NCBI GenBank assembly: GCA_024278455.1
Contig: JAJRTE010000022.1
Coordinates: 10,539-74,538, forward strand
From: Myxococcota bacterium
GTDB taxonomy: Bacteria; Myxococcota_A; UBA796; JAJRTE01
Length of the DNA: 64,000 nucleotides
Direction of reading: 5' to 3'
The notes beneath the pieces were generated by a model, which ran no database searches, was not told the DNA's origin, and saw nothing but the letters and a program-made list of their open reading frames with translations. The translations under genes and the position numbers were made by a program. Of this stretch, positions 5,983-63,840 are shown in pieces (positions within the stretch are counted from its first letter, which is position 1; the number at the start of each line of letters is the position of its first letter).

Positions 5983-5999
5983 TTGTTGGGTGGTGTCGG

Positions 6000-6422: not shown

Positions 6423-6988
6423 CCGACGACATGATCACCGTCTCGTTTTGCCACGACGGGGTGCTCGACCGTATCCGGGACGTGGAAGCGATCGTGCTGG
6501 GCCTGTTCGAAGACGAGCGGCCGCTCAAGGGCATGACCGGCTTCGTGGACTGGCGCCTCCACGGCCTCCTGTCCCGCCTCGTCCTGCAGCAACGCCTGGA
6601 GGGCACCCTTCTCGAGGGGTGTCTGATGCCGTCTCGAGGCCGGCTGCCGATGGACATGGTGTTCCTGTTCGGGCTCGGGTCGCTGGAAGAACTATCTGTC
6701 CAGACATTCCAGCGCGTCGCATTCCAGGTCGTCGGGACCATGGCACGAGCACGTGTGGGCCACTTCGCCCTCTCCCTCTGGGACCTGACTCGAGGTCGCG
6801 TGGCCCCCGAGGAGGCGGCGAGAATCGTGCTGCGAGCATTCCTGTCCGACAGGAGACACCGGCCTCGAGGGGGACGCACGGCCGTCACTTTCGTCGAAAC
6901 CGGCCCCTGGGGTCACGCACTTCGAGACGCTTTTCTCAAGCTGGCCGAACGCAAGGACGAATTGCCGGTGCGGCTCGAGTTGCATTGA
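6419..6988 (+). CDS. hypothetical protein, leucyl-aminopeptidase (M17) N-terminal-domain-like, translationally coupled to nusB
   Basis: ATG 6419 overlaps nusB TGA (ATGA); 190 aa MTDDMITVSFCHDGVLDRIRDVEAIVLGLFEDE...pattern resembles Peptidase_M17_N/macro-like fold; ORF track frame 5990..6988 is longer but upstream part overlaps nusB. Confidence 0.5.
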   Translation: MTDDMITVSFCHDGVLDRIRDVEAIVLGLFEDERPLKGMTGFVDWRLHGLLSRLVLQQRLEGTLLEGCLMPSRGRLPMDMVFLFGLGSLEELSVQTFQRVAFQVVGTMARARVGHFALSLWDLTRGRVAPEEAARIVLRAFLSDRRHRPRGGRTAVTFVETGPWGHALRDAFLKLAERKDELPVRLELH

Positions 6989-37052: not shown

Positions 37053-37229
37053 CGGAGGTTTGCAGCCGCTCGCAGCACGGCCGGGCCAGGGTCGTGTGAC
37101 CGGTTTTAGCACCAGGGAGCACGCAAGCAAAGCAAAACCGAAATGTTCTGGATCGTGCCGCCTGCTCGTGCCATCCTGTAGCCGGGCCGAAGATCGCGGC
37201 AACATTTCGAATTCGGGAGAGGAAATACC

Positions 37230-38084
37230 ATGAAACTCTACAGTATCAGGGGGAATTCTCAACGGCTCGACGGCGGCGCCATGTATGGAAACTGCCCCAG
37301 GGCGCTGTGGTCCCGGTGGAGCCCCCCGGACGAAGCACACCGGATCGATCTTGCCTGTCGCGCGCTGCTCGTCGAGGACGGCGACCTGTTGATTCTCGCC
37401 GAAACCGGCATCGGGGCCTACATGGAGCCACGACTCAGGGAGCGTTTCGGCGTCGTGGAATCGGAGCACATGCTCCTCGAGGCCCTGGACGAAGTAGGGG
37501 TAGCGCCATCGGACATCACCCACGTCGTGCTTTCTCACCTCCATTTCGACCATGCCGGGGGGCTGCTCACGGCCTACCAGGAGGGTGCCGAGCCGGAGTT
37601 GTTGTTCGAGCGGGCGACCTACATGGTCGGCGAACGGGCGTTCGAGCGAGCGAGAGCCCCCCATCTCCGCGACCGGGCGTCGTTCATTCCAGGCCTGACC
37701 GAACGTCTGCGTCGCTCCGGGCGACTGAAGCTTGTCAAGCACGCCCACGACCATTCGTTCGGCCCTCGCTACCGGTTCCGGTTCACGGATGGCCACACCC
37801 CGGGCTCCACCCACCTGGAGATCCTCGAGCCGCGGCATGTTCTTTTCGCAGCGGACCTCATTCCCGGCACCCCGTGGCTCCACCTCCCGATTACGATGGG
37901 CTACGACCGGTTCCCGGAACTGCTGGTAGACGAAAAACGCAGGCTACTCGAGGCAGTAGAGAAGCGGGGGGGGTTCCTGTTCTATACCCACGATCCGAAG
38001 TGGGCCATGAGCCGGGTCGCGCGAGACGAGAAGGGCCGGTTCAGACCGGTCGACGCCATCGAGACCCTGGATGGATGGCCGTAG
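37230..38084 (+). CDS. MBL-fold metallo-hydrolase
   Basis: HLHFDHAGG metallo-beta-lactamase motif; GGGAGAGGA SD 6 nt before ATG. Confidence 0.85.
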
Positions 38085-40521: not shown

Positions 40522-42819
40522 TCAGGGGACCCCGCCGGGAGACCCAGAGCGCGATGCCGGTAGGACTCCCTCGAGACGCGCCGCCTGCTCCACCGATTCG
40601 AAGACGGCGTCCGACGGTTCGGTGAACTCGGTAATGGTGTAGGGATAGACATCGCTGACCGCCGTGGTCCCCAGCACCTCCTCTGCCACGAACCCGAGCA
40701 ACGCCTTGCGCATGGTCGCGACCAGGGCGGAGTCGGTGTCCGGAGCGGCGCAGAACATGTCCGACGGAATCGCGCGCGTCCCGGTCAGAATCTGCACTTT
40801 GCGCTGGAACCCCTGGTCCACGTGGAAGGCCCGCATAAAGGCCTCGGAGTAGACCGCGGCCACATCGCAGCGCCCGGCGAGGAGGTCCATGATGGCCTGC
40901 ACGTGGGCGCCGCTGAACACGACTCGCGAGAACAGCGTGTCCGGGTCGTACCCCTGTTCGCGCAGGTAGAGTCTTGGAAAGAGGTATCCGCTGGTCGAAC
41001 CCCGGTCCACGTAGCAAATGCGCTTGCCCGCCAGGTCCGCCACCGTCTCGATGCCGCTCTCCGCCGGCACGACGAGCAACCCTTGTGACGCGCTGTCATA
41101 TCGTGCATAAGCGACCGGCGTTACATCGGACCGTGCGTGCCGGGCCAGTACATACTGCACCGGTGGGAGCATGCCGAAGTCGTAGGATCCGGCCTCGAGC
41201 CCGGTCCGCAATGCCCGGTAGCTGGGTGCGACCTCCACGTCGATGGGCCGGGCGATACTGGCCTCGAGGTAGCGTAGCAGGGGTGCGAGTTCGCGTGCGG
41301 CGTCGGTGGTCGGGGAGGCGGGATACAGGCCGATTCTCACCACGGGTCCTGCCGGACGCACGGCAGGTGTGGGCATGGTTGCAAGGGTCAGGGCGGTGAC
41401 GAGGATCAGGCCAAGGGCGACCCCCACGGCCGGCGCCTTCCAGCCCACTCTGGCAGCCAACCGCCGGAGCACGCTTGCCCACGGCCGGGCGGCGCGGCCG
41501 AACACGGGCACATCCGGCACACCACCCCGCTCGGCTCCTCTCCCGCCCGTACCAAGGCGATCCACGCCGGCCTGCGCTCGAGACGCGCCCGATTCGGAAG
41601 CCACGAGCCGGGTGTACAGCGCCTCCAGGCGTTCAACGGCCTGCTTCGATGACGGGCGCTCGGCAGCCACTTTCCGGAGGCACTGGTCGATCAGCGCGGC
41701 GAGGTCCTTGGGCAGGTCCCCGGCGACCTGGGAGACCGAGGGCACCGGCTCGAGGCCGGCCACCGCATCCGGGATGTGTTGGAGCGGGACCCCATGATAG
41801 GGACGCCGCCCGGTCACCAACTGGTACAGAACAAGCCCGAAGGCCCACATGTCGGTCTCGGGACCTATCGGCTCCTCCCGCCACTGTTCCGGCGCCATGT
41901 AGGCGGGCGTACCCAGGAATCGGCTCTTCACCGTGGTCGATTCGCCCCCAGCCAGGCTCTGGAGCCCGGACGCGGTGACGCGAACGTCCTCCATCTTCGC
42001 ACCAACGCCGTCGCCGGTGGACGCCAGTCCCTTGGCAAGGCCGAAGTCGAGCACGCGCAACCGGCCGTCAGCGGGCAGCATGATGTTGCCAGGCTTGAGA
42101 TCCCGGTGCAGCACGCCGTGCTGATGTGCTTCGGCGAGCGCTCGAGCAATCGGCAGGCCCAGCCGAATGGCCTCCTCGGCGCTCGGCACGGTCCGGGCCA
42201 TGTGCTCGCGCAGCGTCAAGCCCTCGAGGTACTCGAGCGCCATGTACGGGCGCCCGGCATGCTCCCCGACGGCATAGATGGAGACGATGTGTGGGTGGTT
42301 GAACCGTGCCGTGGTGCGTGCCTCGAGGAGGAAGCGCTGGCGAGTGGCATAGGAGCCGAGGTAGCCCGGGGAGATCACCTTGAGGGCCACGGGCCTGCCG
42401 AGGGTATCGTCTCGAGCCAAGTAGACCTCTCCCATACCGCCCCGGCCGACCAGGCGCTCGACAACGAAGTGATCCACGACGGTGCCCGGGGCCAACGGCG
42501 CCATGCCAGGGGCCGGGGTCGCCAGCGTCCGGGTCACGGTCGCGGCCGAAACCTCCATGCCCGAAGCGGCGGACAGGGTGTCGACGAGCGCCCGGCAACG
42601 CACGCACTGTTGCAGGTGCCGGCCGATGGCAGACGCCTCATCGAGTGGCACGATCCCATCCAGGACCTGCTGGATCGTGTCGGGGTCGAGGTGTACATGA
42701 TCGGCATCGACGGGGGGAGTGTGCTTCCCGGCCTCGTCGCCGGGCTGAGCCGAACATGCGGGCTGCTCGCCCATGTCGATCGGCACGCCCTGTCCTGGTG
42801 CGTCGTCTCGATCTGTCAC
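40522..42819 (-). CDS. Ser/Thr protein kinase with N-terminal zf-HC2 (anti-sigma-like) segment, TM helix and periplasmic PhnD/SsuA-like phosphonate-binding-protein domain
   Basis: Kinase subdomains GRGGMGEVY, ALK, HRDLKPGNIM, DFGLAK, APE; N-terminal H..C..C motif; C-terminal 300 aa matches PBP phosphonate-binding fold; GTG 42819 has GAGAGG SD (ORF track TTG 42834). Confidence 0.8.
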   Translation of the reverse strand: MTDRDDAPGQGVPIDMGEQPACSAQPGDEAGKHTPPVDADHVHLDPDTIQQVLDGIVPLDEASAIGRHLQQCVRCRALVDTLSAASGMEVSAATVTRTLATPAPGMAPLAPGTVVDHFVVERLVGRGGMGEVYLARDDTLGRPVALKVISPGYLGSYATRQRFLLEARTTARFNHPHIVSIYAVGEHAGRPYMALEYLEGLTLREHMARTVPSAEEAIRLGLPIARALAEAHQHGVLHRDLKPGNIMLPADGRLRVLDFGLAKGLASTGDGVGAKMEDVRVTASGLQSLAGGESTTVKSRFLGTPAYMAPEQWREEPIGPETDMWAFGLVLYQLVTGRRPYHGVPLQHIPDAVAGLEPVPSVSQVAGDLPKDLAALIDQCLRKVAAERPSSKQAVERLEALYTRLVASESGASRAQAGVDRLGTGGRGAERGGVPDVPVFGRAARPWASVLRRLAARVGWKAPAVGVALGLILVTALTLATMPTPAVRPAGPVVRIGLYPASPTTDAARELAPLLRYLEASIARPIDVEVAPSYRALRTGLEAGSYDFGMLPPVQYVLARHARSDVTPVAYARYDSASQGLLVVPAESGIETVADLAGKRICYVDRGSTSGYLFPRLYLREQGYDPDTLFSRVVFSGAHVQAIMDLLAGRCDVAAVYSEAFMRAFHVDQGFQRKVQILTGTRAIPSDMFCAAPDTDSALVATMRKALLGFVAEEVLGTTAVSDVYPYTITEFTEPSDAVFESVEQAARLEGVLPASRSGSPGGVP

Positions 42820-43001
42820 GCGTTCCTCTCGCAAGCTGTCCGGGGGCGGCCCGGTTGCCGAAGTGTCATGCGGTCTACCTGCCGGTTTCAGGCTAACACT
42901 CCGGCTCGGTGCCAGTCAAGGTGGAGGGCGGCGCCGACGAACGCGTACCGCACCCTGTTCAGGAAACGGGGTGAGCTTGCCGAACCGGAAACTGGTCTGG
43001 C

Positions 43002-47200: not shown

Positions 47201-48238
47201 ATGAGCCACTCGAGAGCCTTCCTGGTATGCATGATGCTCGCCTCGCCTGGCGTGGCCATGGCGGCGGGACTTACACAACACCAGTTCATGGCGGACATTG
47301 CTCGCGACCTGGTCACGAATGCGGATCTGGAGGCATGTCTCTCCGAGAACCGGAACGCCTACCTGATGGGCGCGCCTTTCCCGGACACGGGCTGGGTCGT
47401 GTTCGACGACCCCTTGTCGGAAGATGCCCACAGCCCGGCCTTCATCAGCGCGTTCGTCGAGCACATCCGCGAAACCTATCCCTACCCCTACGCGGAGCAG
47501 CAGCGCCTCATTTCCTTCATGATGGGCGTCGCGTCCCACGTCGCCGATGACCCGCCGTACCACTCGGGATTCATCCAGGCCGTTGCCGAGCACGACTTCC
47601 GCGGCGACTACGACCTGGCCCACACCATGTGCGACGCCGGTCTCGAGTTCATTGCCATCGTCGACCACGACCGGTGGGAGGACGTGCCGGAGTACTGGCT
47701 GCCTCTCCGGGACATCGAGCAGGTGTATGCGCGGCTGGGGTCCTCCTATGACCGTTGGGAGTTCGTCCTGGGCAACATGATCCTGATCGTCGCGGAAGAG
47801 GCGGAACGCTGGGTGGCGTCGCCGTTGTACCGGCCGCTGGAGCGGGTCATGCCCTGGGCGGTGGCCAACTACTACACCTATCCGGACGGCGGCCTGCTCA
47901 ACGGCGGGGAGATCGCTGCCGGCTACTACCTGGACACGTGGCGGGCGCTTTTCGCGTCGCCGGGCGCCGCCAGGCTCGGCCCGCTGGCTGGAAGTGGACT
48001 CGCCGCCGATGATCGGGCCCGCATTCACCGTGACCCGGCGATCGCCTTCGCCAGGCGAAGCCTAGAGGATGGCGTCGTCCGCATCGAGGTCTCCTACGAC
48101 TCCGACGGGAGCGTCACGCTACGTGGTCCGGTCATCCTGGACATGGATGCCTGGACTGGTGGAGTGAACGAACTGGCGCGGGCGTTTTCCGGCGCAATGC
48201 AACAGGGCGGTGTCCGGGGCGGAACGAGGACGCCGTGA
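47201..48238 (+). CDS. secreted hypothetical protein, possibly Zn-dependent phospholipase C / P1-nuclease superfamily
   Basis: Signal peptide MSHSRAFLVCMMLASPGVAMA; His/Asp clusters (SHVADDPPYH, AEHDFRGDYDLAH) reminiscent of PLC Zn ligands; GAGGTGA SD; ORF track opens 47018. Confidence 0.4.
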   Translation: MSHSRAFLVCMMLASPGVAMAAGLTQHQFMADIARDLVTNADLEACLSENRNAYLMGAPFPDTGWVVFDDPLSEDAHSPAFISAFVEHIRETYPYPYAEQQRLISFMMGVASHVADDPPYHSGFIQAVAEHDFRGDYDLAHTMCDAGLEFIAIVDHDRWEDVPEYWLPLRDIEQVYARLGSSYDRWEFVLGNMILIVAEEAERWVASPLYRPLERVMPWAVANYYTYPDGGLLNGGEIAAGYYLDTWRALFASPGAARLGPLAGSGLAADDRARIHRDPAIAFARRSLEDGVVRIEVSYDSDGSVTLRGPVILDMDAWTGGVNELARAFSGAMQQGGVRGGTRTP

Positions 48239-48368: not shown

Positions 48369-49325
48369 ATGACCGAGGGGCCAGTGCCGGGCGACACCCG
48401 GGAAACCGTGTACCCTTTCGAGCGGAAGAAGAGGACGAGGCGCCAGCGGGAGGAGGCGGAGGCGATCAGGGAGATCCTGGGGGCCCGACTCGGTCTCCCC
48501 GCCCTGGACACCCTGCCTCCCGAGGTCCGTGACCTCCTGCTCAAGTATACCACCGCATGCCACCTCAACATCGCCTGGTACCAGTCGCAGCGGGAGCGGG
48601 AAATCAGGCTCTACCGCGGGTTCTTCGCCCTGACCGTACTCCTGGTCGCAGGAACGCCCGCCGCCGTCACCTTCCTCTCCACGTCGCTCGACGCCTCGCT
48701 TGCTCCCCTGGTGACCGCCGTTCTCGCGGGCGTGTTCGGCACGCTCAAGTCTCTCGCCGCCATCCTCGAGCAACGCAAGCTCGTGGGGCTGTTCTGGAAA
48801 GCGGAAGCCGATCTGAAGACGGACCTCTACGCATTCGAGGACCGGTGGCGCGGGAAGGTCCTCGAGGAGCCTGGTTTCGGCGAGGAGCCTGTCACCGGCG
48901 TGCGGGTGAAAAAGGACTTCATTCGCGGCCTCCACCTGCAGATCCAGAAGGCGGAGCAGACGCGAAGGGAGGAACAGGACAAGTTCTTCTCACGGTTCGA
49001 TCGCGTGCCGTTCGACGTTACCGAGGTGATTTCTGGAGGAACGCGCCGCGCGGAGGGTGTGGTGAAGACCTTCTCCTCGAGCGAGAAGAGTCCGTCCGAA
49101 CTCGAGGGGGAGGTCGAGCGGGCGCGTTTGAAGCTTTCCTACATCGAACAGCGGCTGGCTGCGGCCGGTGCGCGGTTGGCAGCCCTCGAGGGAGACACGA
49201 CGACGCTGGGCGACACCAGCCGCCAGGTCCTGGTGGACGAGATCGAGCGCTTGCATGCCCTTCGGTTCGACACGGAAACGGAGATTTCGGAGAAGCTGGC
49301 ACGGGTCGGCCGGCTGCATTCGTGA
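48369..49325 (+). CDS. SLATT/DUF4231-like 2TM protein with C-terminal coiled-coil
   Basis: WY...REIRLYRGFF, two TM helices (ALTVLLVAGTPAAVTFL; LAPLVTAVLAGVFGTL), then LFWKAEADLKTDLYAFEDRW block typical of SLATT-clan proteins; AAGGGGGA SD; stop overlaps next gene region. Confidence 0.55.
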   Translation: MTEGPVPGDTRETVYPFERKKRTRRQREEAEAIREILGARLGLPALDTLPPEVRDLLLKYTTACHLNIAWYQSQREREIRLYRGFFALTVLLVAGTPAAVTFLSTSLDASLAPLVTAVLAGVFGTLKSLAAILEQRKLVGLFWKAEADLKTDLYAFEDRWRGKVLEEPGFGEEPVTGVRVKKDFIRGLHLQIQKAEQTRREEQDKFFSRFDRVPFDVTEVISGGTRRAEGVVKTFSSSEKSPSELEGEVERARLKLSYIEQRLAAAGARLAALEGDTTTLGDTSRQVLVDEIERLHALRFDTETEISEKLARVGRLHS

Positions 49326-49327
49326 CC

Positions 49328-50851
49328 ATGCGCGTACTGTTCGTTACCTCCCTCACCGGTGCCATCACGCCGCGGCACCCGCTCAGGTCGCCGGAACAGA
49401 TACAGTTCGGCATATCCTACCTTTCGGCCGTACTCCGCCAGCACGGCCACGAGACGCGCCTCGTGGTCCTCAGCCACGCCTGGGGCCGACGCAACCTCCA
49501 CCTCGTGAACCAGGTCGCACGCGACTTCCTCCCGCAACTGGTGCTCTTGACCGCCGTCACGTCGGAATTCCCGTTCATCTCGACCATGGCGTCCCGGTTG
49601 CGGAAGCGGTTTCCCGGCGCCTACCTCGTGCTCGGCGGACCGCACGCCTCCCTGCGTCCGGATGAGGCCATCCAGGCCGACGTCGACGCCGTCTGCGTGG
49701 GTGAGGGGGAGGAGGCGGTGGTTCAACTCGCGACTCAGATCGAGACCTTGAACGGACCACACGCCGTCGCGGGGTTGTGGATGAAGGTGTCCGGCCGGAT
49801 CGTGCGCTACCCCCCCGGCTTGCGGGTCGAGGACCTCGACACCCTGCCCTACCCGGACCGGGACATCTGGACGCCCTGGATCGATCCCACCTCACACGGG
49901 CGCCCCGCCGTGCTCCTCGGCAGGGGATGTCCATTCCTGTGCACCTACTGCTGCAACCACGCGCTGAGACGCACCGCACCGGGCACCTACGTCCGACTTC
50001 GACGCCCGGACGCCATCGTGGAGGAAATCGAGAACCTCGTGTCCCGATCGACACGGGTGGCGGACCCACCGCGAGAAATCGCCCTCGAAGTCGAATCCAT
50101 CGATCTGGATCGGCGCTGGGCCCTCGAGCTTTGCCACCGGCTCGAACGGTTCAACGCTGGCCAGGAAACCCCGGTGGGGTTTGCCACCAATTTCCGGGTA
50201 CGCCGGCGCATCGACCCGGAACCTCTCTTCCGTGCCATGGCTCGAGCCGGGTTTCGTGGGGTCACCATCGGGCTCGAGGCCGGTAGCGACCGGATTCGGA
50301 GGGAGGTGCTGCGCCGTGCCTGCACGACCCAGGACGTCCTCGACGGGGTGCGGTGTGCGCGGCGACACGGCTTGCGGGTGGTTCTCCAGAACATGATAGG
50401 GGTCCCGGGCGAGACCGAGGAGGACGCGATCGAGACTGCGCTGCTCAACCGGGTGCTGCGTCCGGACCGGTACTACGTGAGCATCTTCCACCCGTACCCG
50501 GGGACAGAACTCCATGCAACCTGCCTCGAGCGGGGCCTCGAGGTGCGACCGCTGCGTGGCGGAAGGGAACGAAGCGTCCCGGTCATCGATCCGCCCGAGT
50601 TTCCCGCGAGACGCATCCGTCGCACCTACGTCTGGTTCGACCGGCACGTCCAGGAGGGCGTTGCACCGTGGCGGCAGATAGCGCCTCGAGTGTTCAAGGC
50701 ATGGGTGAGAACGCACCCACGCCTCGACGAAGCAGCTCAGCGTATCAGGGCGATGCTGTCATGGCGCGAGGTGCGCCTGGGCCCACGCCGCGGTCACGTT
50801 CCCGCACGCGCACATCGGCCGGCACGCCTCTCGAGGCCCGGGGGGGCATGA
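49328..50851 (+). CDS. B12-binding domain radical SAM enzyme (class B rSAM, likely methyltransferase)
   Basis: N-terminal cobalamin-binding Rossmann-like domain, CPFLCTYC CxxxCxxC cluster motif; ATG 2 nt after upstream stop. Confidence 0.85.
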   Translation: MRVLFVTSLTGAITPRHPLRSPEQIQFGISYLSAVLRQHGHETRLVVLSHAWGRRNLHLVNQVARDFLPQLVLLTAVTSEFPFISTMASRLRKRFPGAYLVLGGPHASLRPDEAIQADVDAVCVGEGEEAVVQLATQIETLNGPHAVAGLWMKVSGRIVRYPPGLRVEDLDTLPYPDRDIWTPWIDPTSHGRPAVLLGRGCPFLCTYCCNHALRRTAPGTYVRLRRPDAIVEEIENLVSRSTRVADPPREIALEVESIDLDRRWALELCHRLERFNAGQETPVGFATNFRVRRRIDPEPLFRAMARAGFRGVTIGLEAGSDRIRREVLRRACTTQDVLDGVRCARRHGLRVVLQNMIGVPGETEEDAIETALLNRVLRPDRYYVSIFHPYPGTELHATCLERGLEVRPLRGGRERSVPVIDPPEFPARRIRRTYVWFDRHVQEGVAPWRQIAPRVFKAWVRTHPRLDEAAQRIRAMLSWREVRLGPRRGHVPARAHRPARLSRPGGA

Positions 50852-50852
50852 G

Positions 50853-52028
50853 ATGGGCCATGCCGCGACCTTCGTGGACCGCCACCTGGCCCGCATCACT
50901 ACGGGGGGTGGATTCATCCCGGAAATCGACGGGTTGCGGTTCCTTGCCATCCTCCCGGTCGTGCTTCACCATCTCCAGATCTACGTGGTCGAGAAGTCGG
51001 GGTTGACGTTCCACGCAGCGCCGGCGACCTCTCTCATGCAGGACGTAATCCGGCAAGGCCGGTACGGTGTGGACCTCTTTTTCGTCTTGAGCGGATTCAT
51101 CCTCGCCCTGCCGTTTGCCCGAGCCTCTCGAAAACGTGGCCGTTCGGTCGACCTGAAGCGTTACTACCTGCGGCGCCTGACGCGGATCGAACCTCCTTAC
51201 GTCGCGTCGATGCTGTTCTTCTTCGCCATGCTGGGCGTGACCCGGGGGGCCGCCGAGGCCCGGGCGTTGCTGCCGAACCTGGGAGCGAGCCTGCTGTACC
51301 TGCACACACCGGTATTCGGCACCAGCAGCCTGATCAACAGCGTCGCATGGTCCCTCGAGGTGGAGGTGCAGTTCTACCTGGTGGTTCCGCTCCTGGCGAT
51401 GGTCTTCCGGCTACCGAGCCGGCGGCGGCGGGCAGGACTCATCGCGGTCGCAGCCCTGTTCAGCGCCGGCAGGCCGTTCTGGTGGCCGGACATGCCCCTC
51501 GTTCTCCCGGCGTTCCTCCAGTACTTCCTGGTGGGGTTTCTTCTCGCCGATCTGTACTTGGCCCGTCACGGCTGGGCAGGTGCCTCCCCCTCCTGGACCG
51601 CGGACCTCGCAACGCTGGGGGCAGCCGTGTGCTGGTACCTGCTCCATCGCGCCCACCCCGGCCTGGCCGACGCCCTGCTCCCCGCCGTGCTCGCGGTGGT
51701 CGTCCGGGGGGCATTTCGCGGGCGGCTTCTCAATGCCCTGTGTCGCAACCTCTTCGTGCGCACGACAGGAGGCATGTGCTATTCCATCTACCTCCTCCAC
51801 TACCCCGTCATCTCGTTCCTCGGACGCCATACCGTGGGCCTGGGACGAACATCTGTCTATCCCCTGTTCTTCGCCGTGCAATCCTGCCTGGTCGTCGTGC
51901 CGGTACTGCTTCTCTCGGCGGTGTTCTACATGCTGATCGAGCGGCCTTGCATGGTTCCGGACTGGCCCGCGCGGGTCGCACGACGGGTGCGGGCGACCCG
52001 GGTTCGAGGGCGAAGGGCCGGTGATTGA
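50853..52028 (+). CDS. acyltransferase family 3 (OatA/OafA-like) membrane protein
   Basis: EIDGLRFLAILPVVLHH... Acyl_transf_3 N-terminal signature, 10 TM; starts 1 nt after rSAM stop. Confidence 0.85.
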   Translation: MGHAATFVDRHLARITTGGGFIPEIDGLRFLAILPVVLHHLQIYVVEKSGLTFHAAPATSLMQDVIRQGRYGVDLFFVLSGFILALPFARASRKRGRSVDLKRYYLRRLTRIEPPYVASMLFFFAMLGVTRGAAEARALLPNLGASLLYLHTPVFGTSSLINSVAWSLEVEVQFYLVVPLLAMVFRLPSRRRRAGLIAVAALFSAGRPFWWPDMPLVLPAFLQYFLVGFLLADLYLARHGWAGASPSWTADLATLGAAVCWYLLHRAHPGLADALLPAVLAVVVRGAFRGRLLNALCRNLFVRTTGGMCYSIYLLHYPVISFLGRHTVGLGRTSVYPLFFAVQSCLVVVPVLLLSAVFYMLIERPCMVPDWPARVARRVRATRVRGRRAGD

Positions 52029-52301
52029 GTGTTCGGCCACGGCAGGCCGCCCATCGCACCGGTCCAATGACCCGGGGGAGAATGCGGGTCGGCAAACTCC
52101 GGGACAACGCCGGCAAACAGGCAAACGGTGCCGCAGCAGCAGATCGAACACCACGGTGGAGCGCTGGAGGGGAAAGAGACGGCCCGCCCGTCCCGGATCT
52201 CCTTGCACCCCGACTGCCTCGATGATACGTTGGCAAGGAGATATGCGCGTTCGCGAGGGGAGCGACGATACCCTCGAGGTTCGGAACGCGGGGGCGACGC
52301 G

Positions 52302-53969
52302 GTGGCTCGAGACACAACGACGGGGGAGCCTGTCCGGAAGGTTGCGCAGCACGCGATGGCGGCATCGCTGGTGTTCTGGATCCTGTTCCTCGCCTACCAG
52401 GCGAACCTGGACTTCCTGCCTGCCTCGGACGCCGCCGGCAGCACCTATCTTCCCGTCAGCCTGCTCGCCGATGGTGACCTCACCTTCACGCCGGAAGAAG
52501 ATCCCTTCCTGTTCGACTGGTACCTGGACACCGAACACGGCCCCAGGCCGGTGGAGGTGCACGACCTGGACCAGCGCATCGACGGTACGCCCGCTCGAGA
52601 CCTCTACGCCGCCGGCAGGCTTCGCCTCGCCGACATACCCTACTACCTGACACCGACGACCCGGGAGGGCGTCTACGCCAACACGTTTTCCCTCGGGGCG
52701 GGTTTGACGGCACTGCCCGTCTTCATCGTGGCCCGGCTCGTGTGGGGCCGGGCCATGTATGCCCGGCCCGACGTGATCTGGTACGCCGGAAAGGTCGCCG
52801 CCTCCCTGGCCGTGGCCCTGTCCGGCCTGTTCGTCTTCTTGGCAGCAGCGACATTCGTCCCCATTGGCCGAGCAGCGTTGATCGCCATCCTCTACGGCCT
52901 GGGGACCTGCGCCTGGAGCATCGCCAGCCAAAGCCTGTGGCAGCACGGACCCAACATGCTCTTTCTTGCCGCCGGAACCTGGATGTTCCTCGAGGCGCCC
53001 CGGCGACGATGGGCCGCCGCGGGAGCGGGCCTGGCCTACGGGCTTGCCGTCGCCTGCCGGCCCACCAGCCTGATCGTCGTCATGGTGACCGGCCTGTACC
53101 TGTGCCTGTCCCACCGGGACCGCTGCCTCCCGTTCGCATTGGCCGCCGGGGTCGCCGGGGCCGGACTGGCCTACTATAACCAGGTGATGTTCGGGTCCCC
53201 CTTCGTCTTCGGGCAGACGGAAGTGTCCGTCGCGATGGCCGAGTCCTTGACAGGCTCGCCGAACCTCTGGGGTACGCCTCCCTGGAAAGGGGCTGCCGGC
53301 CTCCTGATGAGCCCTTCGAGGGGCCTGCTCGTCTATTCCCCGGTGGCTGCCGTGGCACTCCCGGGCCTGGTGGCTGCCTGGCGGAACAACACATACCGCG
53401 TGCTCCGTCCCATCGCCGTATCCCTCCTCCTCACCTGGGTGGTAGCATTCACCTGGTACGATTGGTGGGGCGGCTGGTCGTTCGGCTACCGGCCCCTGGT
53501 GGACAGCATGGTACTATTGAGCCTGCTCGCGACTCCCGCGCTTCCGAACGTCCTCTCCTCCCGGTGGCTCAGGGTTCCGATCGCGCTGTTGGCAGCCTGG
53601 TCGATCTTCGTCCAGGTGCTGGGAGCGTTCGCCTACAACGGGTTCGGCTGGAACAATCGTACCCAGTTCGAGATTGCGTTGCCCGGCCGGACGGACACGG
53701 TGGTGACTCGAGATCACGACGAAGCGGTGACCCTGGTGGACGGCGAGGGGGGACGCATCGTCGGCGTGGAGAAACTTGACGTGTGCCGCCGCGCCCACCT
53801 CGACAGGCTATGGTCATGGTCGGACAGCCAGTTGCTCTACTACCTGAAGTACCCACTGCTCTCCCGGGCGGACAAACAGGACTTCATCGTATCGTGGCTG
53901 GCGCGGTACGCCCCCTTCCCCGAAGAGCGAAAACCGTTGACACCGCCCGGCACACCCCCCACCCTGTGA
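52302..53969 (+). CDS. polytopic membrane protein, GT-C-like glycosyltransferase candidate (DUF2029/ArnT-like)
   Basis: 11-13 TM helices, first periplasmic loop with DGD acidic motif; GTG 52302 with GGGGG SD (alternative ATG 52356; ORF track 52128). Confidence 0.55.
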   Translation: MARDTTTGEPVRKVAQHAMAASLVFWILFLAYQANLDFLPASDAAGSTYLPVSLLADGDLTFTPEEDPFLFDWYLDTEHGPRPVEVHDLDQRIDGTPARDLYAAGRLRLADIPYYLTPTTREGVYANTFSLGAGLTALPVFIVARLVWGRAMYARPDVIWYAGKVAASLAVALSGLFVFLAAATFVPIGRAALIAILYGLGTCAWSIASQSLWQHGPNMLFLAAGTWMFLEAPRRRWAAAGAGLAYGLAVACRPTSLIVVMVTGLYLCLSHRDRCLPFALAAGVAGAGLAYYNQVMFGSPFVFGQTEVSVAMAESLTGSPNLWGTPPWKGAAGLLMSPSRGLLVYSPVAAVALPGLVAAWRNNTYRVLRPIAVSLLLTWVVAFTWYDWWGGWSFGYRPLVDSMVLLSLLATPALPNVLSSRWLRVPIALLAAWSIFVQVLGAFAYNGFGWNNRTQFEIALPGRTDTVVTRDHDEAVTLVDGEGGRIVGVEKLDVCRRAHLDRLWSWSDSQLLYYLKYPLLSRADKQDFIVSWLARYAPFPEERKPLTPPGTPPTL

Positions 53970-54119
53970 CCCGACCGCGTTGGATGATGTTGCCGCAAAA
54001 GATGCAGCACATGCCAACCGAGGTGTTATCTTTCTACCAGGAGCGCGGCGGCCGTCGATGGGACGTCCTTGGAGACAGCGGTCTTCGACGCCGATACGGC
54101 CTCCCGCGCAGCTTCGAGG

Positions 54120-56981
54120 ATGACAAAAGGAGAGATGGTGTTGACCGATAGCAAGACAAGGGTGTCGGCCCGCGTGCTCTACGTGGACGACAACTCGCAC
54201 GACGTGGCCCTCGTGCGCCGCGCCCTCGAGGAGGCTGGGGAGGACTTCGAACTGGTGGTCGCGCCGAGCCGGACATTGCTGGAGCACACGTTGGAGACGC
54301 GACGGTTCGACGTGGCGCTGACCGATTTCGACGTGCTCGGCCACGCGGGGCTGGACATCGTGGACAGGATCCGGGAGCGTCTCGACGACGTACCCGTTGT
54401 TCTGCTGACGGGCACAGGTTCGGAAGCGGTCGCCGCCGAGGCGTTGCGCCGGGGTGTGGACGACTATGTCATCAAGACCCCGGAGCAAATCCGCCGGCTC
54501 CCCAAGCGGCTGAATCTCCTCCTCGAAGCGCGGCGGCTGCGGAGGGAGAATGTCGAGGCGGCGGCCGAGCTGGTATCCACGTCCGAGAGCTACCTGGAGA
54601 TCCTGCGGACGAGCCCGGATGCCATGCTGGTTCTTGGCCCGGACCGCGAGATACGGTTTGCGAATCCGGCCGCGGAGGCCATGTTCGGCCACGACACCGG
54701 CACGCTTCTGGGCGAAGTCTTCTCTCATCCGATCGGATCGCCGGGCGAATCGATCGATATCGAGATTTCGCAGGGAGGAGGCGGGATCCGTTTCGGCGAA
54801 CTCCGGGCGGTGGGCATCACCTGGGAAGGGGAACCGGCCACCCTGGCGGTCATCCGGGACATCACCGAGCGTTCACGGCTCCTGGCGGAGCAGCAAGCCC
54901 TGGCCCGGACATCGAGCATTTTCCTGGAGAGCGACACCCTGGCCGACGTTTTCCAGGAAGTCCTCGATCAGCTCAAGCAGGTCGTGCACGCCGATGCAGG
55001 ATACGTGTCGAGACGGACGCCGGAAGACGAGAACGAGGTGGTCATTCTCGACCCCGGCGCACAGATATGTCGCATCGACGTCACATCGACCCGGATTCGC
55101 GGGCTGCGGGAGCTAGCCTACCGCAGTTCGCGGCCGATCTATGAAAACGCCTTTTCCGCCAGTGCCGCCTGGGCCCTGGTCCCGCCTGGACACATCGCGA
55201 TCGAGAACGTGCTATTTTGCCCGATCCAGACACGGGAGGGTGTCTGGGGACTCATCGGGCTGGCCAACAAACCTGGCGGCTTCGACGAGTCGGACGCTCG
55301 AATCACCGAGGCATTCAGCGGTGTCATCTCCCTCGCGATCCAGCGGCAATCCCACCTGGACGCCTTGCGCGAATCCGAGACGCGCTTCAAAGTGATCTTC
55401 CACAACGCCATGGACGGTATCGTGCTTGCCGACATGGAAACCGGGCGTGTTCTCCTGGCGAATCGCGCGATGGAGCAGTTGCTGGGCTACACGCCGGACA
55501 GTCTTCTCGAGCGTCCGCTGTCTGACGTCGTTTCGGCCCACACGGGGCACGGAGAGGCGGTCGATCCCGCCGGCGAGGGAGACGGCCGGATTCTGGGCGA
55601 GTTGTCGATCCGGCGTCCCGATGGCGAAACACGGGACGCCGAGGTTCACGCGGCCCGGCTTCTCCTCGAGGGCAGAGACGTCGTGGTGGGTGTATTCCGC
55701 GACGTGACGGAACGCAAGCGGTTGCAGGCAGCGATGGCGCAGTCGGACCGGCTTGCCACCATGGGCATGCTTGCGGCGGGCGTGGCCCACGAGATCAACA
55801 ACCCCCTCTCCTACCTCCTGTACAACCTCGAGACCAGCGTGGAGGATCTCGGGAAGATTCTCGGTCAAGCCCGGCTTTCGGACGGAATGGAAACGGCCGG
55901 CGCGCGGGCGAAGGCACGGGGCCTGTCGTTGTGGGCAGGAAAGGACGGCTGCCCGCGGGACCTCCTCGAGGATGTCTATTCGCGGGTCCGTGAGGCGGCC
56001 ACGGCTGCGCAACGTATCAAGGACATCGCCCGCGGCCTGGGCACCTTCTCTCGAGTGGAGCGCCCGGAGCAGTTCGAGGTCGACCTTGTCGAAGCGGTCG
56101 AGCACGCGGTCAGCATGGCGCACAACGAGATCAAGTACCGGGCACGGCTGGTCAAGCGACTCGAGCCGGTCCCACCGGTTCTCGCCAGCGAGGGGCGCCT
56201 CGCCCAGGTCGCGCTCAACCTGGTCGTCAACGCGGCCCAGTCCATGGACGAAGGGGACGTGGAGCACAACGAGATCCGGATCCGGACATGGGTCGACGAT
56301 GACCAGGTATGCCTCGAGGTGGCCGACACTGGCCACGGCATTCCGGAAAAGGACCTTGAACGGATCTTCGACCCGTTCTTCAGCACCAAGCCGGCCGGCG
56401 TGGGATCCGGCCTGGGCCTGACCATTTGCAAGACGATCGTGTCCGAGTATGGCGGCGACATCTCTGTTTCCAGCGCAGCGGGTGCCGGCACGACCTTTGT
56501 CGTGCGCCTGCCGCACATCGGCACGTCGACCGGCGCGCGAGCGGCTCCTCGACACCAGCCCGAGCCCCTGGAACTGGCGGCTCGCGGGCGCGTGTTGGTG
56601 GTGGACGATGAACCGGCCATCCGGCGCATCCTTCAGCGGCTCCTGGAGAGAGACCACCAGGTCGTGCTCGTGGCGTCTGGAGATGCGGCCAGGAGCGTGC
56701 TCGATGCCGACCAGGCGTTCGACGTGATTCTGTGCGACATCATGATGTCGGAAGGCTCAGGCATGGACCTGCATGCTTGGCTCGAGGATGTCCACCCCGT
56801 ACTCTCCCGGCGGGTCATCTTCATGAGCGGCGGAGCATTCACTCCCCGGGCCCGGGACTACATGGCGAAAGTCGACACGCCCCACATCGACAAGCCATTC
56901 GACATGCCGAGACTGAGACGTCTCGTGGCCGAACGTGTGCGGGCTGCCCGAGGCAGCGGTTCGTCATCCCGCGCCGGGTAG
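54120..56981 (+). CDS. hybrid sensor histidine kinase / response regulator (REC-PAS-GAF-PAS-HisKA-HATPase-REC)
   Basis: N-terminal receiver (YVDDN...D...K), PAS/GAF, H-box AAGVAHEINNPL, N/G boxes, C-terminal receiver VLVVDDEP...CDIMM; start among ATG 54120/54135. Confidence 0.85.
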   Translation: MTKGEMVLTDSKTRVSARVLYVDDNSHDVALVRRALEEAGEDFELVVAPSRTLLEHTLETRRFDVALTDFDVLGHAGLDIVDRIRERLDDVPVVLLTGTGSEAVAAEALRRGVDDYVIKTPEQIRRLPKRLNLLLEARRLRRENVEAAAELVSTSESYLEILRTSPDAMLVLGPDREIRFANPAAEAMFGHDTGTLLGEVFSHPIGSPGESIDIEISQGGGGIRFGELRAVGITWEGEPATLAVIRDITERSRLLAEQQALARTSSIFLESDTLADVFQEVLDQLKQVVHADAGYVSRRTPEDENEVVILDPGAQICRIDVTSTRIRGLRELAYRSSRPIYENAFSASAAWALVPPGHIAIENVLFCPIQTREGVWGLIGLANKPGGFDESDARITEAFSGVISLAIQRQSHLDALRESETRFKVIFHNAMDGIVLADMETGRVLLANRAMEQLLGYTPDSLLERPLSDVVSAHTGHGEAVDPAGEGDGRILGELSIRRPDGETRDAEVHAARLLLEGRDVVVGVFRDVTERKRLQAAMAQSDRLATMGMLAAGVAHEINNPLSYLLYNLETSVEDLGKILGQARLSDGMETAGARAKARGLSLWAGKDGCPRDLLEDVYSRVREAATAAQRIKDIARGLGTFSRVERPEQFEVDLVEAVEHAVSMAHNEIKYRARLVKRLEPVPPVLASEGRLAQVALNLVVNAAQSMDEGDVEHNEIRIRTWVDDDQVCLEVADTGHGIPEKDLERIFDPFFSTKPAGVGSGLGLTICKTIVSEYGGDISVSSAAGAGTTFVVRLPHIGTSTGARAAPRHQPEPLELAARGRVLVVDDEPAIRRILQRLLERDHQVVLVASGDAARSVLDADQAFDVILCDIMMSEGSGMDLHAWLEDVHPVLSRRVIFMSGGAFTPRARDYMAKVDTPHIDKPFDMPRLRRLVAERVRAARGSGSSSRAG

Positions 56982-59974: not shown

Positions 59975-60588
59975 TCAATCCTCCCGGAAGTAGATGTAGA
60001 GGTAGGCGACCGGGGTGGATACGTTGTTCTGCCAGGAGTAGAGGGTGTTGTTGGCGTGGAGCATGCTCAGTTGCCAGCAGTTGGTGTACCACCAGCCCCC
60101 GTTGTAGCCCACGTTGTCCCGGGCACAGTTGTACACCCAGATGTCGTTGTCACTGTCGTGGGTCGTGAACCCCTGTCCCCGCACATCCGCCATGGTGTTG
60201 TACCCTGGAACACGGCTTGCCCAGTCGATGGCGTAGGCGGTATCCGGGCCGCCGATGGAGAAGTCATCCATTCGGAGGTCGAAGCTGCTCATGCCGGCGT
60301 CGAGGATCTGCTTACAGGACACTCCCAACGCGCACACGCCTCCGGGTTCGGGCCGGATCGCCGGGTCGCTGTCGTTGCAGTCGGTGCCCCCGCATTCCGC
60401 GTCGGAGTAGCCGTCTCCGTCCGCGTCGTGTCATCGTCCCCGGGTACGGTCGCGTCGTCGTCCTCGAGGGGGGCGGTTTCTTCGGCAGGTGGCACGGTGG
60501 GGCTGGACGCATCGTCGTCGGCTGGAGGGCAACCGGCGAGAAGCAGGTCGGCCAGGAGCAGGCAGGGGGCAAGGTCCTACCGCGTCAT
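59975..60588 (-). pseudogene. disrupted lipoprotein gene with D-x-DGDG Cys-rich motif and fibrinogen-related (FReD-like) C-terminal domain
   Basis: ATG 60588 MTR then in-frame TAG (60577-60579) then lipoprotein signal DLAPCLLLADLLLAGC; frameshift near 60420-60440 joins ...LEDDDATVPGDDD to ADGDGYSDAECGGTDCNDSDPAIRPE...; C-terminal FTTHDSDNDIWVYNCARDNVGYNGGWWYTNCWQLSMLHANN matches FReD FSTWDNDND...NCA...GGWW..C signature. Confidence 0.65.
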
Positions 60589-60988: not shown

Positions 60989-62923
60989 TCACCCGCTGAA
61001 ACGAACCAGGCGCGAGGAAAACTTGTATTCTCCCACCCACAGGTAACGCCCGTCGTAGGCGAGCGCGGCCGGCCAGAAGAGACGATCGCGCCCGATCGCC
61101 GGGTCGGTGTGCACACAGTCCTCTTGCCCCAGGATAGCCGTGCAGGGTATCCCAGCCACGGCGTCCCTGATGTCTTCCCAGAGCAATACCCGGTTGAATC
61201 CGGTATCGGCGATGAAAAGGTGTCCGTGGGACACGATCGCGTCCTCGGGACGATTCAGCGCGAACAGGCCCGATTGGGTCTCATCCGCCTTGCCCACCAC
61301 GACCGGGAAGCCCCCTTCCGAAAGCCTGCCGACCTCGAAAATCGTAACCGATTGGTCGTCGACGCTCGTCGCGACCAGGTACGAACCGTCACTGGACAGC
61401 CGTACCGGTCGGGTTGCGGGGATGACGTAGGTCGGGGGCGTGTCCTGGTCCGGAAACGAGGGCCAGACGAGGATACGGTCTCCTGACGTATCTGCGAGGT
61501 AGAACCCCTGGTCGTCCATGGTGACGCCACCCACGTCTCGCAGGCTGACACCGCCCACCTGGTCCCTGTACTCCGTGTCGGGCTGTTCACCGCCGAGGGG
61601 GAGGTGGTTCCAGGCGAGGAGCATGTTTCCGCCGACCAGCACGAGGTGGTCATCGTGCAGCGCGATACTCCAGGGAGAGGCGTCCTTGTTCAGTTCACAG
61701 GTCACGTCCGGCGCCTGGCCGCTTTCGGTCGGAATCTCGCGCCAGACAGAGAGCGTCCCGTCGAAATCGGATGAGACGAACAGGTGCTTCCCGTCGGTCG
61801 CCGGGCGTGGGTTGTTGATTAACCCATGTTCCCGCAAGGTGTTCGTGTACGGGTCCGGCGCGCCCACGGAGAAGTCGGGTGGTCGCGGCGGTGAGAACGG
61901 GTCTCCGAAATAGCCCGCGATGAAGTTCCCGTTGTTCACGGACACGTAGGTCGCCTGCTCGGTCCAGGCAACGCCGGAGCCATCCCCTCCCGAAAAGGCG
62001 TAGACCGATTCCGGCAAGCGTGCATCCGGCTCCAGGTCATCGGGAGCAAGGAAGGAGTCCCAGGCATACAGCTCGGAGCCGAGCATGATGAGTCGTCCTT
62101 GTGCATCGAACGTTCCCTGGAGGATGGCTCGAGCCGGATCCATGGGGTCCGTCATGAACAGGTCGTAGGGCGCTCCGTCCGTGGTGGGGAACCTGGTCCA
62201 CACGAAACACCCCTGCGCCAGCGTGGGACTGGCTCGAGACCCCGGGTTGTGGTCCCCAATGATGAGCCGGTTCCCATCCGAGGTGATCGTGCGCGGCGTG
62301 CCGATGTCGCCATCGCCGGTGAGTTCGATGTCGGGCGGTTCGTCGTTCCGAGTGGGGAATGTGTTCCAGACGAAGACGACCCCTTCCCTCGTGCCACTGA
62401 CGACGAGCCGCTGCCCATCACTCCACACTCCCCACGGCCAGGGTGCCGCGATCGCGAGGTCGGCGGGAGCGCCATTCTCCTCCGGAAAACGGTTCCATAT
62501 CAGAACCCGGTCGTTGTAGGCGTCCGTGACCAGGAGGTGCGTGCCGTCGAGCACGGCGCTGACAGGCCAATTCATCTTGTCCAGCGTCGTGCCCGGAGCG
62601 TTGGTGTAGAAGTCTTTTTGCCCGAGGACGATGTCCGGGGCCACGTTTTCCATCGGGAGTTCGCTCCAGATCAGCACGCGATTGTTGTTTCTGTCCGCCA
62701 GTACCAAGTGCTCCCCGTCTGTCGACACGAGCCCTGGATGGTTGAACAGGAGCGGGCCTCCCGTGTCGTTGAAATCGATCCCGGACAGCAGCAGGTCGGC
62801 CTCCATGCCGGTATGGAAAGTGAAGTCGTCAGAAGGGGGCCCCTCCTGCTCCTCCGCGCAACCGGCAAACACAGCCCACCCGAGAACCGCGACTGGAACG
62901 ACCAGACGACCACACGTCACCAT
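60989..62923 (-). CDS. NHL-repeat beta-propeller lipoprotein
   Basis: Lipobox AVFAGC; multiple NNRVLIW/NDRVLIWN-type NHL repeat cores; GAGGAGGG SD 5 nt before ATG 62923 (ORF track 63034). Confidence 0.75.
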   Translation of the reverse strand: MVTCGRLVVPVAVLGWAVFAGCAEEQEGPPSDDFTFHTGMEADLLLSGIDFNDTGGPLLFNHPGLVSTDGEHLVLADRNNNRVLIWSELPMENVAPDIVLGQKDFYTNAPGTTLDKMNWPVSAVLDGTHLLVTDAYNDRVLIWNRFPEENGAPADLAIAAPWPWGVWSDGQRLVVSGTREGVVFVWNTFPTRNDEPPDIELTGDGDIGTPRTITSDGNRLIIGDHNPGSRASPTLAQGCFVWTRFPTTDGAPYDLFMTDPMDPARAILQGTFDAQGRLIMLGSELYAWDSFLAPDDLEPDARLPESVYAFSGGDGSGVAWTEQATYVSVNNGNFIAGYFGDPFSPPRPPDFSVGAPDPYTNTLREHGLINNPRPATDGKHLFVSSDFDGTLSVWREIPTESGQAPDVTCELNKDASPWSIALHDDHLVLVGGNMLLAWNHLPLGGEQPDTEYRDQVGGVSLRDVGGVTMDDQGFYLADTSGDRILVWPSFPDQDTPPTYVIPATRPVRLSSDGSYLVATSVDDQSVTIFEVGRLSEGGFPVVVGKADETQSGLFALNRPEDAIVSHGHLFIADTGFNRVLLWEDIRDAVAGIPCTAILGQEDCVHTDPAIGRDRLFWPAALAYDGRYLWVGEYKFSSRLVRFSG

Positions 62924-63138
62924 TGCCGCCCTCCTCATGCATTCGACACCCGCTCGAGAAATCACGACAGCCGCCCAAGAACCAGTGGATTGTATGCAGA
63001 AGGTTGGATGTGATGTCAAGTATCCGGAGAGCATGGTCCCGACAACGGACAGGGTACGACAGCATCGTTCGGGGGTACGGGAAGTGGAAGAAGGGGGCGC
63101 GCGCGACTCTTCCTCCGCGCCACCCCCGGCGGAGAGGC

Positions 63139-63840
63139 CTACCTCGTCCAGGAATAGGTCGTGCCGTAGGCGGTGGTGTATTCGTTCGTGTGGCTCACAC
63201 CGGAACCGGTTTCGTACGTGGTCGCCCCTTCGTAGGTCGAGCCGGTGTAGGTGGAGACATCGGTCGTGCGGCCCCAGGCGGTGTATCCTGAGCCGTCATG
63301 AACGAAGGCGCCGCTGCTCTCGACCGTTCCGCGGTTGCCGTCCGCGACGAACCCGCTGGCGTGGCTGATGTTCCCGGTGGAGGTCCGCACCGTCGCACCG
63401 CCTCGAGCCCCCGAGTGGCCGAAGGCGCCCGTGGTTGCCGCCGCGAATCCACCCACCGTGTTTCCGTAGGTATCCTGGGCGAGGCCGCCCGTGTACCCGT
63501 TGACCGTGTAGGGCGTGTAGAACGCGCCGGCCCGGCCCGCCGCCGAGCTGCCCCAGTAGGTCTCCGCCGCTCCGCCGGCGTGCGCGGCCGCGGAGTTCGC
63601 GGAGGTGTAACCGGACACGCGACCGATCGAAGCGCCGCCGGCCCCGGTGACATGGGCGCCAGTGGCCATGCCGCCGCTCACGGACGGCGACCAGGCCGCG
63701 CGGGCCGTCCCGGCGGACCGTCCCCCGCCGGGGTTGGCCATGGCGCCGGCGCGCGCGGCGCTGCCTGCTTGAGCGTCGAAAGCGGTGAAGGAAAGGGAAC
63801 CGAGAGCGACGAGACCAGCAGCGATGATGGAAGTCTTCAT
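63139..63840 (-). CDS. secreted Gly/Ala/Thr/Tyr-rich low-complexity protein
   Basis: Signal peptide MKTSIIAAGLVALGSLSFTAFDAQA; AAGGAG SD 6 nt upstream; AT-richer 5' flank. Confidence 0.55.
   Translation of the reverse strand: MKTSIIAAGLVALGSLSFTAFDAQAGSAARAGAMANPGGGRSAGTARAAWSPSVSGGMATGAHVTGAGGASIGRVSGYTSANSAAAHAGGAAETYWGSSAAGRAGAFYTPYTVNGYTGGLAQDTYGNTVGGFAAATTGAFGHSGARGGATVRTSTGNISHASGFVADGNRGTVESSGAFVHDGSGYTAWGRTTDVSTYTGSTYEGATTYETGSGVSHTNEYTTAYGTTYSWTR

Follow-up and report, generated by a model that had tools for sequence, protein, structure and literature searches.

Proteins of the SLATT superfamily, as represented by SLATT_1, PF18181 and DUF4231, combine a W-Y helix, a hairpin of two transmembrane (TM) helices and a conserved cytoplasmic helix, and their neighboring genes vary from locus to locus. 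Pore formation is a prediction even for the canonical members (PMC7159879; DRT10 preprint). In the DRT10/UG17 modules, a SLATT-type gene lies directly 5ʹ of an enzyme gene, to which it is coupled tightly or through translation. A DUF4231 protein of the superfamily is required for flagellar motility in Agrobacterium (PMC9812332), which indicates that non-conflict roles exist among these proteins. Here, we describe a locus in a stretch of 64,000 nucleotides (nt) from a Myxococcota bacterium (assembly GCA_024278455.1, contig JAJRTE010000022.1, positions 10,539 to 74,538; hereafter the window), in which a gene for a SLATT-like protein (g1) is followed by genes for a B12-binding radical S-adenosylmethionine (rSAM) enzyme (g2), an acyltransferase of the AT3-only type (g3) and a polytopic membrane protein (g4). 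The gene order resembles that of the DRT10/UG17 modules, but there the enzyme is a reverse transcriptase (RT) with a noncoding RNA and the SLATT protein is of the SLATT-5 family, whereas here a B12-type rSAM enzyme and then an acyltransferase follow.

We favor, with a probability of about 0.55, the reading that g2 and g3, probably with g4, constitute an envelope-glycan module and that g1 is a SLATT-like protein joined to this module in this lineage only. In such a module, g2 would perform the cytoplasmic cobalamin-type radical step in the modification of an envelope glycan or glycolipid, and g3 would transfer an acyl group through the inner membrane to a sugar outside the cytoplasm. The glycosyltransferase slot would be variable, filled by a glycosyltransferase C (GT-C)-like protein here and by a GT4 enzyme in a relative, and g4 would probably be a member of the module. 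By analogy with SLATT proteins, g1 may oligomerize in the membrane and change membrane permeability or signaling in response to a cytoplasmic cue; a pore or effector activity of g1 is proposed on this analogy. The four genes match existing, unnamed NCBI gene calls of the lengths given below (in amino acids, aa), and an exact-sequence look-up found each to be the sole member of its own 90% cluster:

48369–49325 (+): g1, 318 aa, 2TM protein
49328–50851 (+): g2, 507 aa, B12-binding rSAM enzyme
50853–52028 (+): g3, 391 aa, AT3-only acyltransferase
52356–53969 (+): g4, 537 aa, polytopic membrane protein

Gene junctions and the one related genome

An initial annotation, made from the letters alone, had reported four genes at these positions with the first three tightly packed, and this was borne out. 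The stop codon of g1 (ending at 49325) and the start codon of g2 (49328) are separated by 2 nt (TGA-CC-ATG), and the stop of g2 (50851) and the start of g3 (50853) by 1 nt (TGA-G-ATG). g1 has its own Shine-Dalgarno-like sequence, AAGGGGG, 7 nt 5ʹ of its ATG, and no obvious one was seen before g2. Together, a ribosome-binding site (RBS) for g1, no obvious RBS for g2 and the tight gaps indicate that g1, g2 and g3 are probably co-transcribed and translationally coupled. The most likely start of g4 is the ATG at 52356, which is the NCBI call and leaves a gap of 327 nt after g3; the alternative GTG at 52128, implied by the initial annotation, would give a protein of 613 aa and a gap of 99 nt. No unusual RNA structure or terminator was detected in the 327-nt gap, and promoter and terminator scans and RNA folding of two intergenic regions gave nothing above shuffled controls. 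An Rfam scan of the window yielded no cobalamin riboswitch or other RNA family. The G+C content is about 65% throughout the window, and the G+C content at third codon positions (GC3) of g1, 0.82, equals that of the neighboring genes, indicating that g1 is no recent insertion.

The arrangement of g1, rSAM and AT3 genes recurs in one other genome, which was sampled twice, as a Joint Genome Institute (JGI) metagenome contig (L001/L003) and as a metagenome-assembled genome labelled 'uncultured Gammaproteobacteria' (L002). A scan of GTDB genomes returned one locus, from the same relative. The three genes lie there inside a syntenic block of seven, whose products, in order, are OPT (87% identity to L002), sigma-70 (73%), YbjN-like (70%), a Zn-dependent phospholipase C (PLC)-like protein (67%), g1 (57%), rSAM (63%) and AT3 (62%). 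In L002 the g1/rSAM gap is again 2 nt, and the rSAM and AT3 genes overlap in the sequence ATGA. Synteny stops on both sides of the block: the kinase and HtpG genes found upstream in the window are missing from L002, as are g4, a hybrid kinase gene and a prolyl oligopeptidase gene downstream. The AT3 gene of the relative is instead followed by a GT4 glycosyltransferase gene and then by a convergent asparagine synthase gene. The arrangement described in the initial annotation is therefore kept in this relative as far as the tight g1-g2-g3 spacing is concerned, but not in its fourth gene, and g4 is no conserved part of the g1-g2-g3 unit. The GT-C-like g4 here and the GT4 gene in L002 suggest that the position 3ʹ of AT3 holds a glycosyltransferase that varies between genomes, as would fit a surface-glycan locus.

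The PLC-like gene, in the same position in L002, lies directly 5ʹ of g1 with a gap of 130 nt:

47201–48238 (+): secreted Zn-dependent PLC-like protein, Pfam Zn_dep_PLPC E 3.7e-11, above cut-off

The N-terminus of its product, MSHSRAFLVCMMLASPGVAMA, resembles a signal peptide. The gene is within the conserved block, and whether it belongs to the g1-g3 unit is uncertain. On the other side, directly 3ʹ of g4, the hybrid kinase gene is as follows:

54069–56981 (+): hybrid sensor kinase with the domain order REC, PAS, GAF, PAS, HisKA/HATPase, REC

The enzymes g2 and g3 and the membrane protein g4

The product of g2 passed the Pfam cut-offs for both the B12-binding domain (PF02310, 58.8 bits against 32.1) and the Radical_SAM domain (PF04055, 73.5 bits against 29.5). 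It carries the CxxxCxxC motif as CPFLCTYC (aa 201–208, nt 49928–49951), and no hydrophobic or TM segment was predicted, which points to a soluble protein. On its domain content, g2 is a class-B rSAM enzyme, that is, one with a B12-binding domain. An N-terminal B12-binding Rossmann domain, an rSAM core and CxxxCxxC are shared with QCMT (9CCB), BchE, HpnJ, TokK and TsrM, but the orthologous family of g2 (41%–47% identity, about 485 aa) is uncharacterized. The best NCBIfam equivalogs, all far below cut-off, were BchE, HpnJ, TIGR04013, ApyD and the methyl-coenzyme M reductase (MCR) glutamine C-methyltransferase. BchE and HpnJ are non-methylases, and QCMT/TIGR04014 is a methylase. The nearest solved chain was 9CCB (E 8e-18, low similarity), followed by AprD4. 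9CCB is QCMT, a glutamine C-methyltransferase, and the chemistry of class B is varied, with some members, such as AprD4, binding no cobalamin (PMC12931638). Given this variety and the distance of the nearest models, C-methyl transfer is one possibility among several for g2, and the initial description of g2 as a likely C-methyltransferase is unproven, its nearest NCBIfam models being BchE and HpnJ and its nearest solved relative being QCMT, at low similarity.

The g2 family comprises more than 600 homologues of 41%–47% identity and uniform length, from Omnitrophota, Margulisbacteria, Planctomycetota and Actinomycetota. To compare contexts, we sampled five g2-family loci and six independent g1-family loci. 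Four of the five g2-family loci were polysaccharide-type clusters, containing genes for Wzy_C, PMT_2, GT4, GT2, DegT, WbqC, NeuB and UDP-glucose dehydrogenase, and the fifth was not such a cluster. Tandem B12-rSAM paralogues and SPASM rSAM genes also occur in these clusters. Literature searches gave no report that places this rSAM family in such clusters. A glycan substrate for g2 and g3 is what we infer from this context. Searches of six-frame open reading frames (ORFs) with phmmer and hmmsearch found no g1-like ORF or AT3 homologue within 8 kb of the five g2-family genes. In locus L018 (705–6507), four B12-binding rSAM paralogues stand in a row, three on one strand and one convergent, adjoining GT2 genes and a SPASM rSAM gene; this looks like a glycan cluster unusually heavy in radical chemistry.

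For g3, the Pfam Acyl_transf_3 model (PF01757) matched at positions 2–325 of 326 (E 3.7e-35, 122 bits against 31), so that the O-acyltransferase call of the initial annotation, like that of a B12 radical-SAM enzyme for g2, passed the Pfam cut-offs. The protein has at least six hydrophobic segments at a strict threshold, indicating a polytopic protein, and it contains R29-x10-H40 in TM1 and FFVLSG at aa 76–81. Mutagenesis of OafA/Oac has reportedly shown the AT3 motifs R-x10-H and FFxxSG to be functionally important. From these sequence features g3 is an AT3-only membrane O-acyltransferase. In its full AT3 domain, its lack of a fused SGNH domain and its R-x10-H and FFxxSG motifs it is like Oac, WbaK, Lag-1, IcaC and WecH, but it lies outside any recognizable O-antigen or exopolysaccharide (EPS) cluster. 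AT3-only proteins acylate O-antigen, EPS, enterobacterial common antigen and periplasmic glucans (PMC9558356).

The initial annotation had called g4 GT-C-like. It matched the NCBIfam model of the LA_3751/LA_3752 putative glycosyltransferase (NF047440) at E 4.6e-14, but its 52 bits are below the cut-off of 200, and GT-C membership is not established. The protein has about 9–11 hydrophobic segments and a long D/E-rich first loop. Like LA_3751/LA_3752 and GT-C enzymes, g4 is polytopic, its first loop is long and acidic, and its C-terminal domain is soluble, but it has no Pfam GT-C match. No Pfam match at E ≤ 1, no PDB sequence match and no similarity to the PMT_2 protein of L014 were found for g4, and its single-sequence AlphaFold2 (AF2) model (predicted local distance difference test score, pLDDT, 44.7) was too poor for an assessment of the GT-C fold. 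We regard g4 as a plausible GT-C-type glycosyltransferase. A second GT-C-like gene lies about 10 kb upstream:

34818–37883 (−): 1021-aa polytopic protein, Pfam Dpy19 E 4.6e-8, above cut-off

C-mannosyltransferases of the Dpy19 family are of the GT-C type and are rarely annotated in bacteria.

The g1 protein and its family

The motifs named for g1 in the initial annotation were all present: NIAWY...RLYRGFF is followed by two hydrophobic segments and then by the block LFWKAEADLKTDLYAFEDRW. The parts of the protein are as follows:

48567–48848 (+): SLATT-like core (aa 67–160), consisting of the NIAWY helix, TM1, a 5-aa loop, TM2 and the amphipathic helix LFWKAEADLKTDLYAFEDRW
48618–48683 (+): TM1 (aa 84–105), from hydropathy
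48699–48767 (+): TM2 (aa 111–133), from hydropathy
49086–49319 (+): C-terminal coiled-coil hairpin (aa 240–317), AF2 helices 242–272 and 279–317, pLDDT > 90

In the AF2 model, the hairpin of adjacent TM segments is flanked by helices (helices 51–106, 109–133 and 137–160, pLDDT > 87). The 185 aa after the TM segments are all-helical in this confident model (pLDDT 88.5), and a PDB profile search matched solely coiled coils (GCN4, keratin and designed ones). The '170-aa coiled-coil tail' reported initially was thus roughly right as to the helical region, but canonical coiled-coil hairpin behavior is limited to about aa 240–317. The inter-TM loop of 5 aa contains no K or R and its flanks are K/R-rich, a pattern that predicts a cytoplasmic location for the two soluble parts; g1 would then be a hairpin in the membrane whose termini both lie in the cytoplasm.

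The relationship to SLATT proteins was assessed by profile searches. Pfam DUF4231 (PF14015) matched g1 at E 0.0034 (18.2 bits against a cut-off of 24.7; aa 68–156 on model positions 3–88), and NCBIfam SLATT_1 (NF033634) at E 1.6e-4 (21.6 bits against 41; aa 67–132 on model positions 9–74). Among 1.84 billion cluster representatives, an exhaustive HMMER search with the N-terminal 218 aa of g1 as the query returned 293 at E ≤ 1e-3, of which 167 reached E ≤ 1e-10; they are mostly of about 300–340 aa, and the match extends along most of g1. When 42 members were aligned, they showed, in order, an N-terminal YxFE, HLNIxWY, two TM helices, FWKAxADLKxxLYxFExxW, an AR..EE..FF helix and a coiled-coil tail. 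In this alignment g1 retains all invariant positions (Y71, K150 and E202) and all nearly invariant ones, including W70, F142, A145, L149, E157 and W160. SLATT_1 matched 28 of the 42 members, DUF4231 eight and PF18181 four, and no other membrane or TM family recurred among their profile matches; among ten members inspected closely, eight had a SLATT_1 match. The best SLATT_1 score was that of P0034 (40.9 bits against 41, model positions 10–130 of 132). The initial assignment to SLATT/DUF4231 therefore stands as remote homology, but g1 itself falls below the curated cut-offs. Judged from these profiles, the g1 family is remotely homologous to SLATT_1/DUF4231, and the specific, recurrent SLATT_1 matches suggest a divergent SLATT_1 branch that no curated model catches. 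It also has two parts beyond those of SLATT_1/DUF4231, namely a conserved YxFE helix at the N-terminus and, at the C-terminus, a coiled-coil hairpin of about 80 aa. Other searches returned fewer members: a word-indexed homologue search found g1 itself and one relative (57% identity) with g1 as the query and 10 proteins with the family alignment, and a metagenome pattern scan found 5 loci, mostly short.

The neighbors of the six other g1-family loci differ:

L008: Ser/Thr kinase gene 17 nt upstream
L010: divergent gene for an AAA_16/STAND-like ATPase
L012: upstream gene for an uncharacterized 486-aa protein; TIR protein encoded nearby on that contig
L005: pYEATS-TIR and trypsin/cell-wall-hydrolase genes
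P0050 contig: FRG protein gene, 4-nt overlap
L017: ceramidase gene and a calcineurin-like phosphoesterase gene, the latter overlapping the g1-like gene, then an archaeal-type S-adenosylmethionine (SAM) synthetase gene

The phmmer and hmmsearch searches of six-frame ORFs found no homologue of g2, g3, g4 or the PLC-like gene in these six loci; none has an rSAM, AT3 or GT-C neighbor, and the proteins encoded upstream in L008 and L012 are not related. The coupling of a SLATT-like protein to rSAM, AT3 and GT-C genes that the initial annotation reported did not prove general in the loci sampled, being seen in 0/6 g1-family and 0/5 g2-family loci. Since g1 keeps all family-conserved residues and the neighbors differ elsewhere, its biochemical role is most likely the generic one of its family, and its transcription unit with the rSAM and AT3 genes is most likely a lineage-specific operon arrangement, with no defining partnership.

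Two features of L017 recall the window. Its archaeal-type SAM synthetase gene (5550–6740, +; PF01941, E 4e-152) lies 57 nt 3ʹ of the g1-family gene, the position that is held in the window by the gene for a SAM-consuming rSAM enzyme, which may be coincidence. A lipid-hydrolase theme is possible, with the PLC-like gene upstream of g1 and the ceramidase and phosphoesterase genes upstream in L017, which makes two examples. Elsewhere in the window, three further genes were recorded, of which the last two are unusual for bacteria:

40522–42834 (−): Hanks-type Ser/Thr kinase (Pkinase E 1.9e-46) fused to a periplasmic phosphonate-binding-protein-like domain (Phosphonate-bd E 5.3e-51)
59975–60430 (−): small protein with a Fibrinogen_C match, E 7e-7
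60989–63295 (−): 768-aa NHL-repeat protein

Possible roles of g1 beside the enzymes

Several observations weigh against a glycan module with an incidental g1. The 2-nt g1/g2 junction without a separate RBS is kept across about 40% protein divergence, and such a junction is expected for subunits made in a fixed ratio, which leaves some probability for a real g1-rSAM partnership. No substrate, glycan-cluster or sugar-nucleotide gene lies near the operon in the window, and the 'glycan' assignment thus comes from family context only. The SLATT homology is under the curated cut-offs for every g1-family member tested, and we found no biochemical demonstration of a SLATT pore in the literature consulted. 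The samples are also small, the counts of 0/6 and 0/5 leaving upper bounds of about 39%–45% for partnered members.

Were g1 bound to the enzymes in function, it might be an anchor in the inner membrane, a scaffold or a regulator that keeps the soluble rSAM enzyme beside AT3 and so coordinates the modification of a lipid-linked glycan with its acylation. We consider this unlikely, though the topology would suit it: g2 has no TM segment, g1 and g3 are in the membrane, and the prediction for g1 puts its large helical domains in the cytoplasm, the compartment in which g2 has to act. Gaps of 2 nt and 1 nt hint at translational coupling, the tight spacing is kept in L002, and the motility protein of Agrobacterium provides a non-conflict precedent in the superfamily (PMC9812332). 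Against an anchor or scaffold, a g1-like gene accompanied none of the five other g2-family genes and rSAM or AT3 none of the six other g1-family genes, g1 has the generic residues of its family with no lineage-specific domain, and no more than two genomes are known to have the arrangement. A true three-part machine of g1, rSAM and AT3, in which g1 would be a membrane tether or gate for radical glycan modification or, in a new defense-type module, an rSAM product would activate a SLATT-like pore, seems to us rather improbable. A chain-length regulator or polysaccharide co-polymerase (PCP) of the Wzz kind might be supposed from two TM helices, a coiled coil and adjacent glycan genes, and next to the distant family member L008 is a cluster that includes a weak Wzz match, an AAA_31-type ATPase and a GT4. 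That cluster, however, is on the opposite strand and convergent with the g1-like gene, and Pfam gave no Wzz match to g1 at E ≤ 1. In Wzz/PCP proteins, the two TM helices enclose a large coiled-coil domain that lies in the periplasm. The inter-TM loop of g1 is 5 aa long and its coiled coil is C-terminal and predicted cytoplasmic; a Wzz/PCP identity was rejected on these grounds. The chain-length or scaffold alternative of the initial annotation fails in its Wzz sense on the same topology, and we give a Wzz-like role hardly any credence.

The locus could also be a conflict or defense module, in which g1 would be a membrane-permeabilizing effector and the rSAM enzyme, with or without AT3 and the upstream PLC, a sensor or signal-generating enzyme, as in the pairing of SLATT with RT (DRT10) or with SMODS/SLOG. 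SLATT proteins are modular effectors paired with varied enzymes, and the TIR, STAND-like ATPase, FRG, calcineurin-like phosphoesterase and trypsin genes in other g1-family loci echo conflict-system themes described with SLATT (PMC7159879). We nevertheless hold this to be very unlikely. No PADLOC model matched g1, its family, g2 or the PLC-like protein, the sole match among g1-family and neighbor proteins being that of a generic kinase to PD-T4-6. SMODS, SLOG or RT genes are absent from the neighborhood in the window and were partners in 0/7 g1-family contexts, the window included, and the g2 family resides in polysaccharide clusters. The operon is flanked in the window by housekeeping genes with host-like GC3, unlike a defense island. 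There was also no match in mobile elements, either by tblastn of g1 against 50,697 phage records, by tblastn of g1, P0034, P0019, P0027 and P0003 against 72,556 plasmid records, or in a viral-contig scan.

A glycan module joined by g1 in one lineage remains our preferred reading, and an adjacency confined to a single lineage should not be taken for a system. If the coupling is functional, a predicted pore-forming effector fold would be tied to radical chemistry of the envelope, a link previously undescribed; if the three-part machine is true, it would be the first example of SLATT paired with rSAM, and more kinds of enzymes than now known would be wired to SLATT effectors. For the families themselves, g1 defines a rare, unnamed SLATT_1-related family beyond the curated models (about 293 representatives, marked by a conserved YxFE helix and by a coiled coil at the C-terminus), and the occurrence of a large uncharacterized B12-rSAM family mainly in surface-polysaccharide clusters is a pointer to its substrate class.

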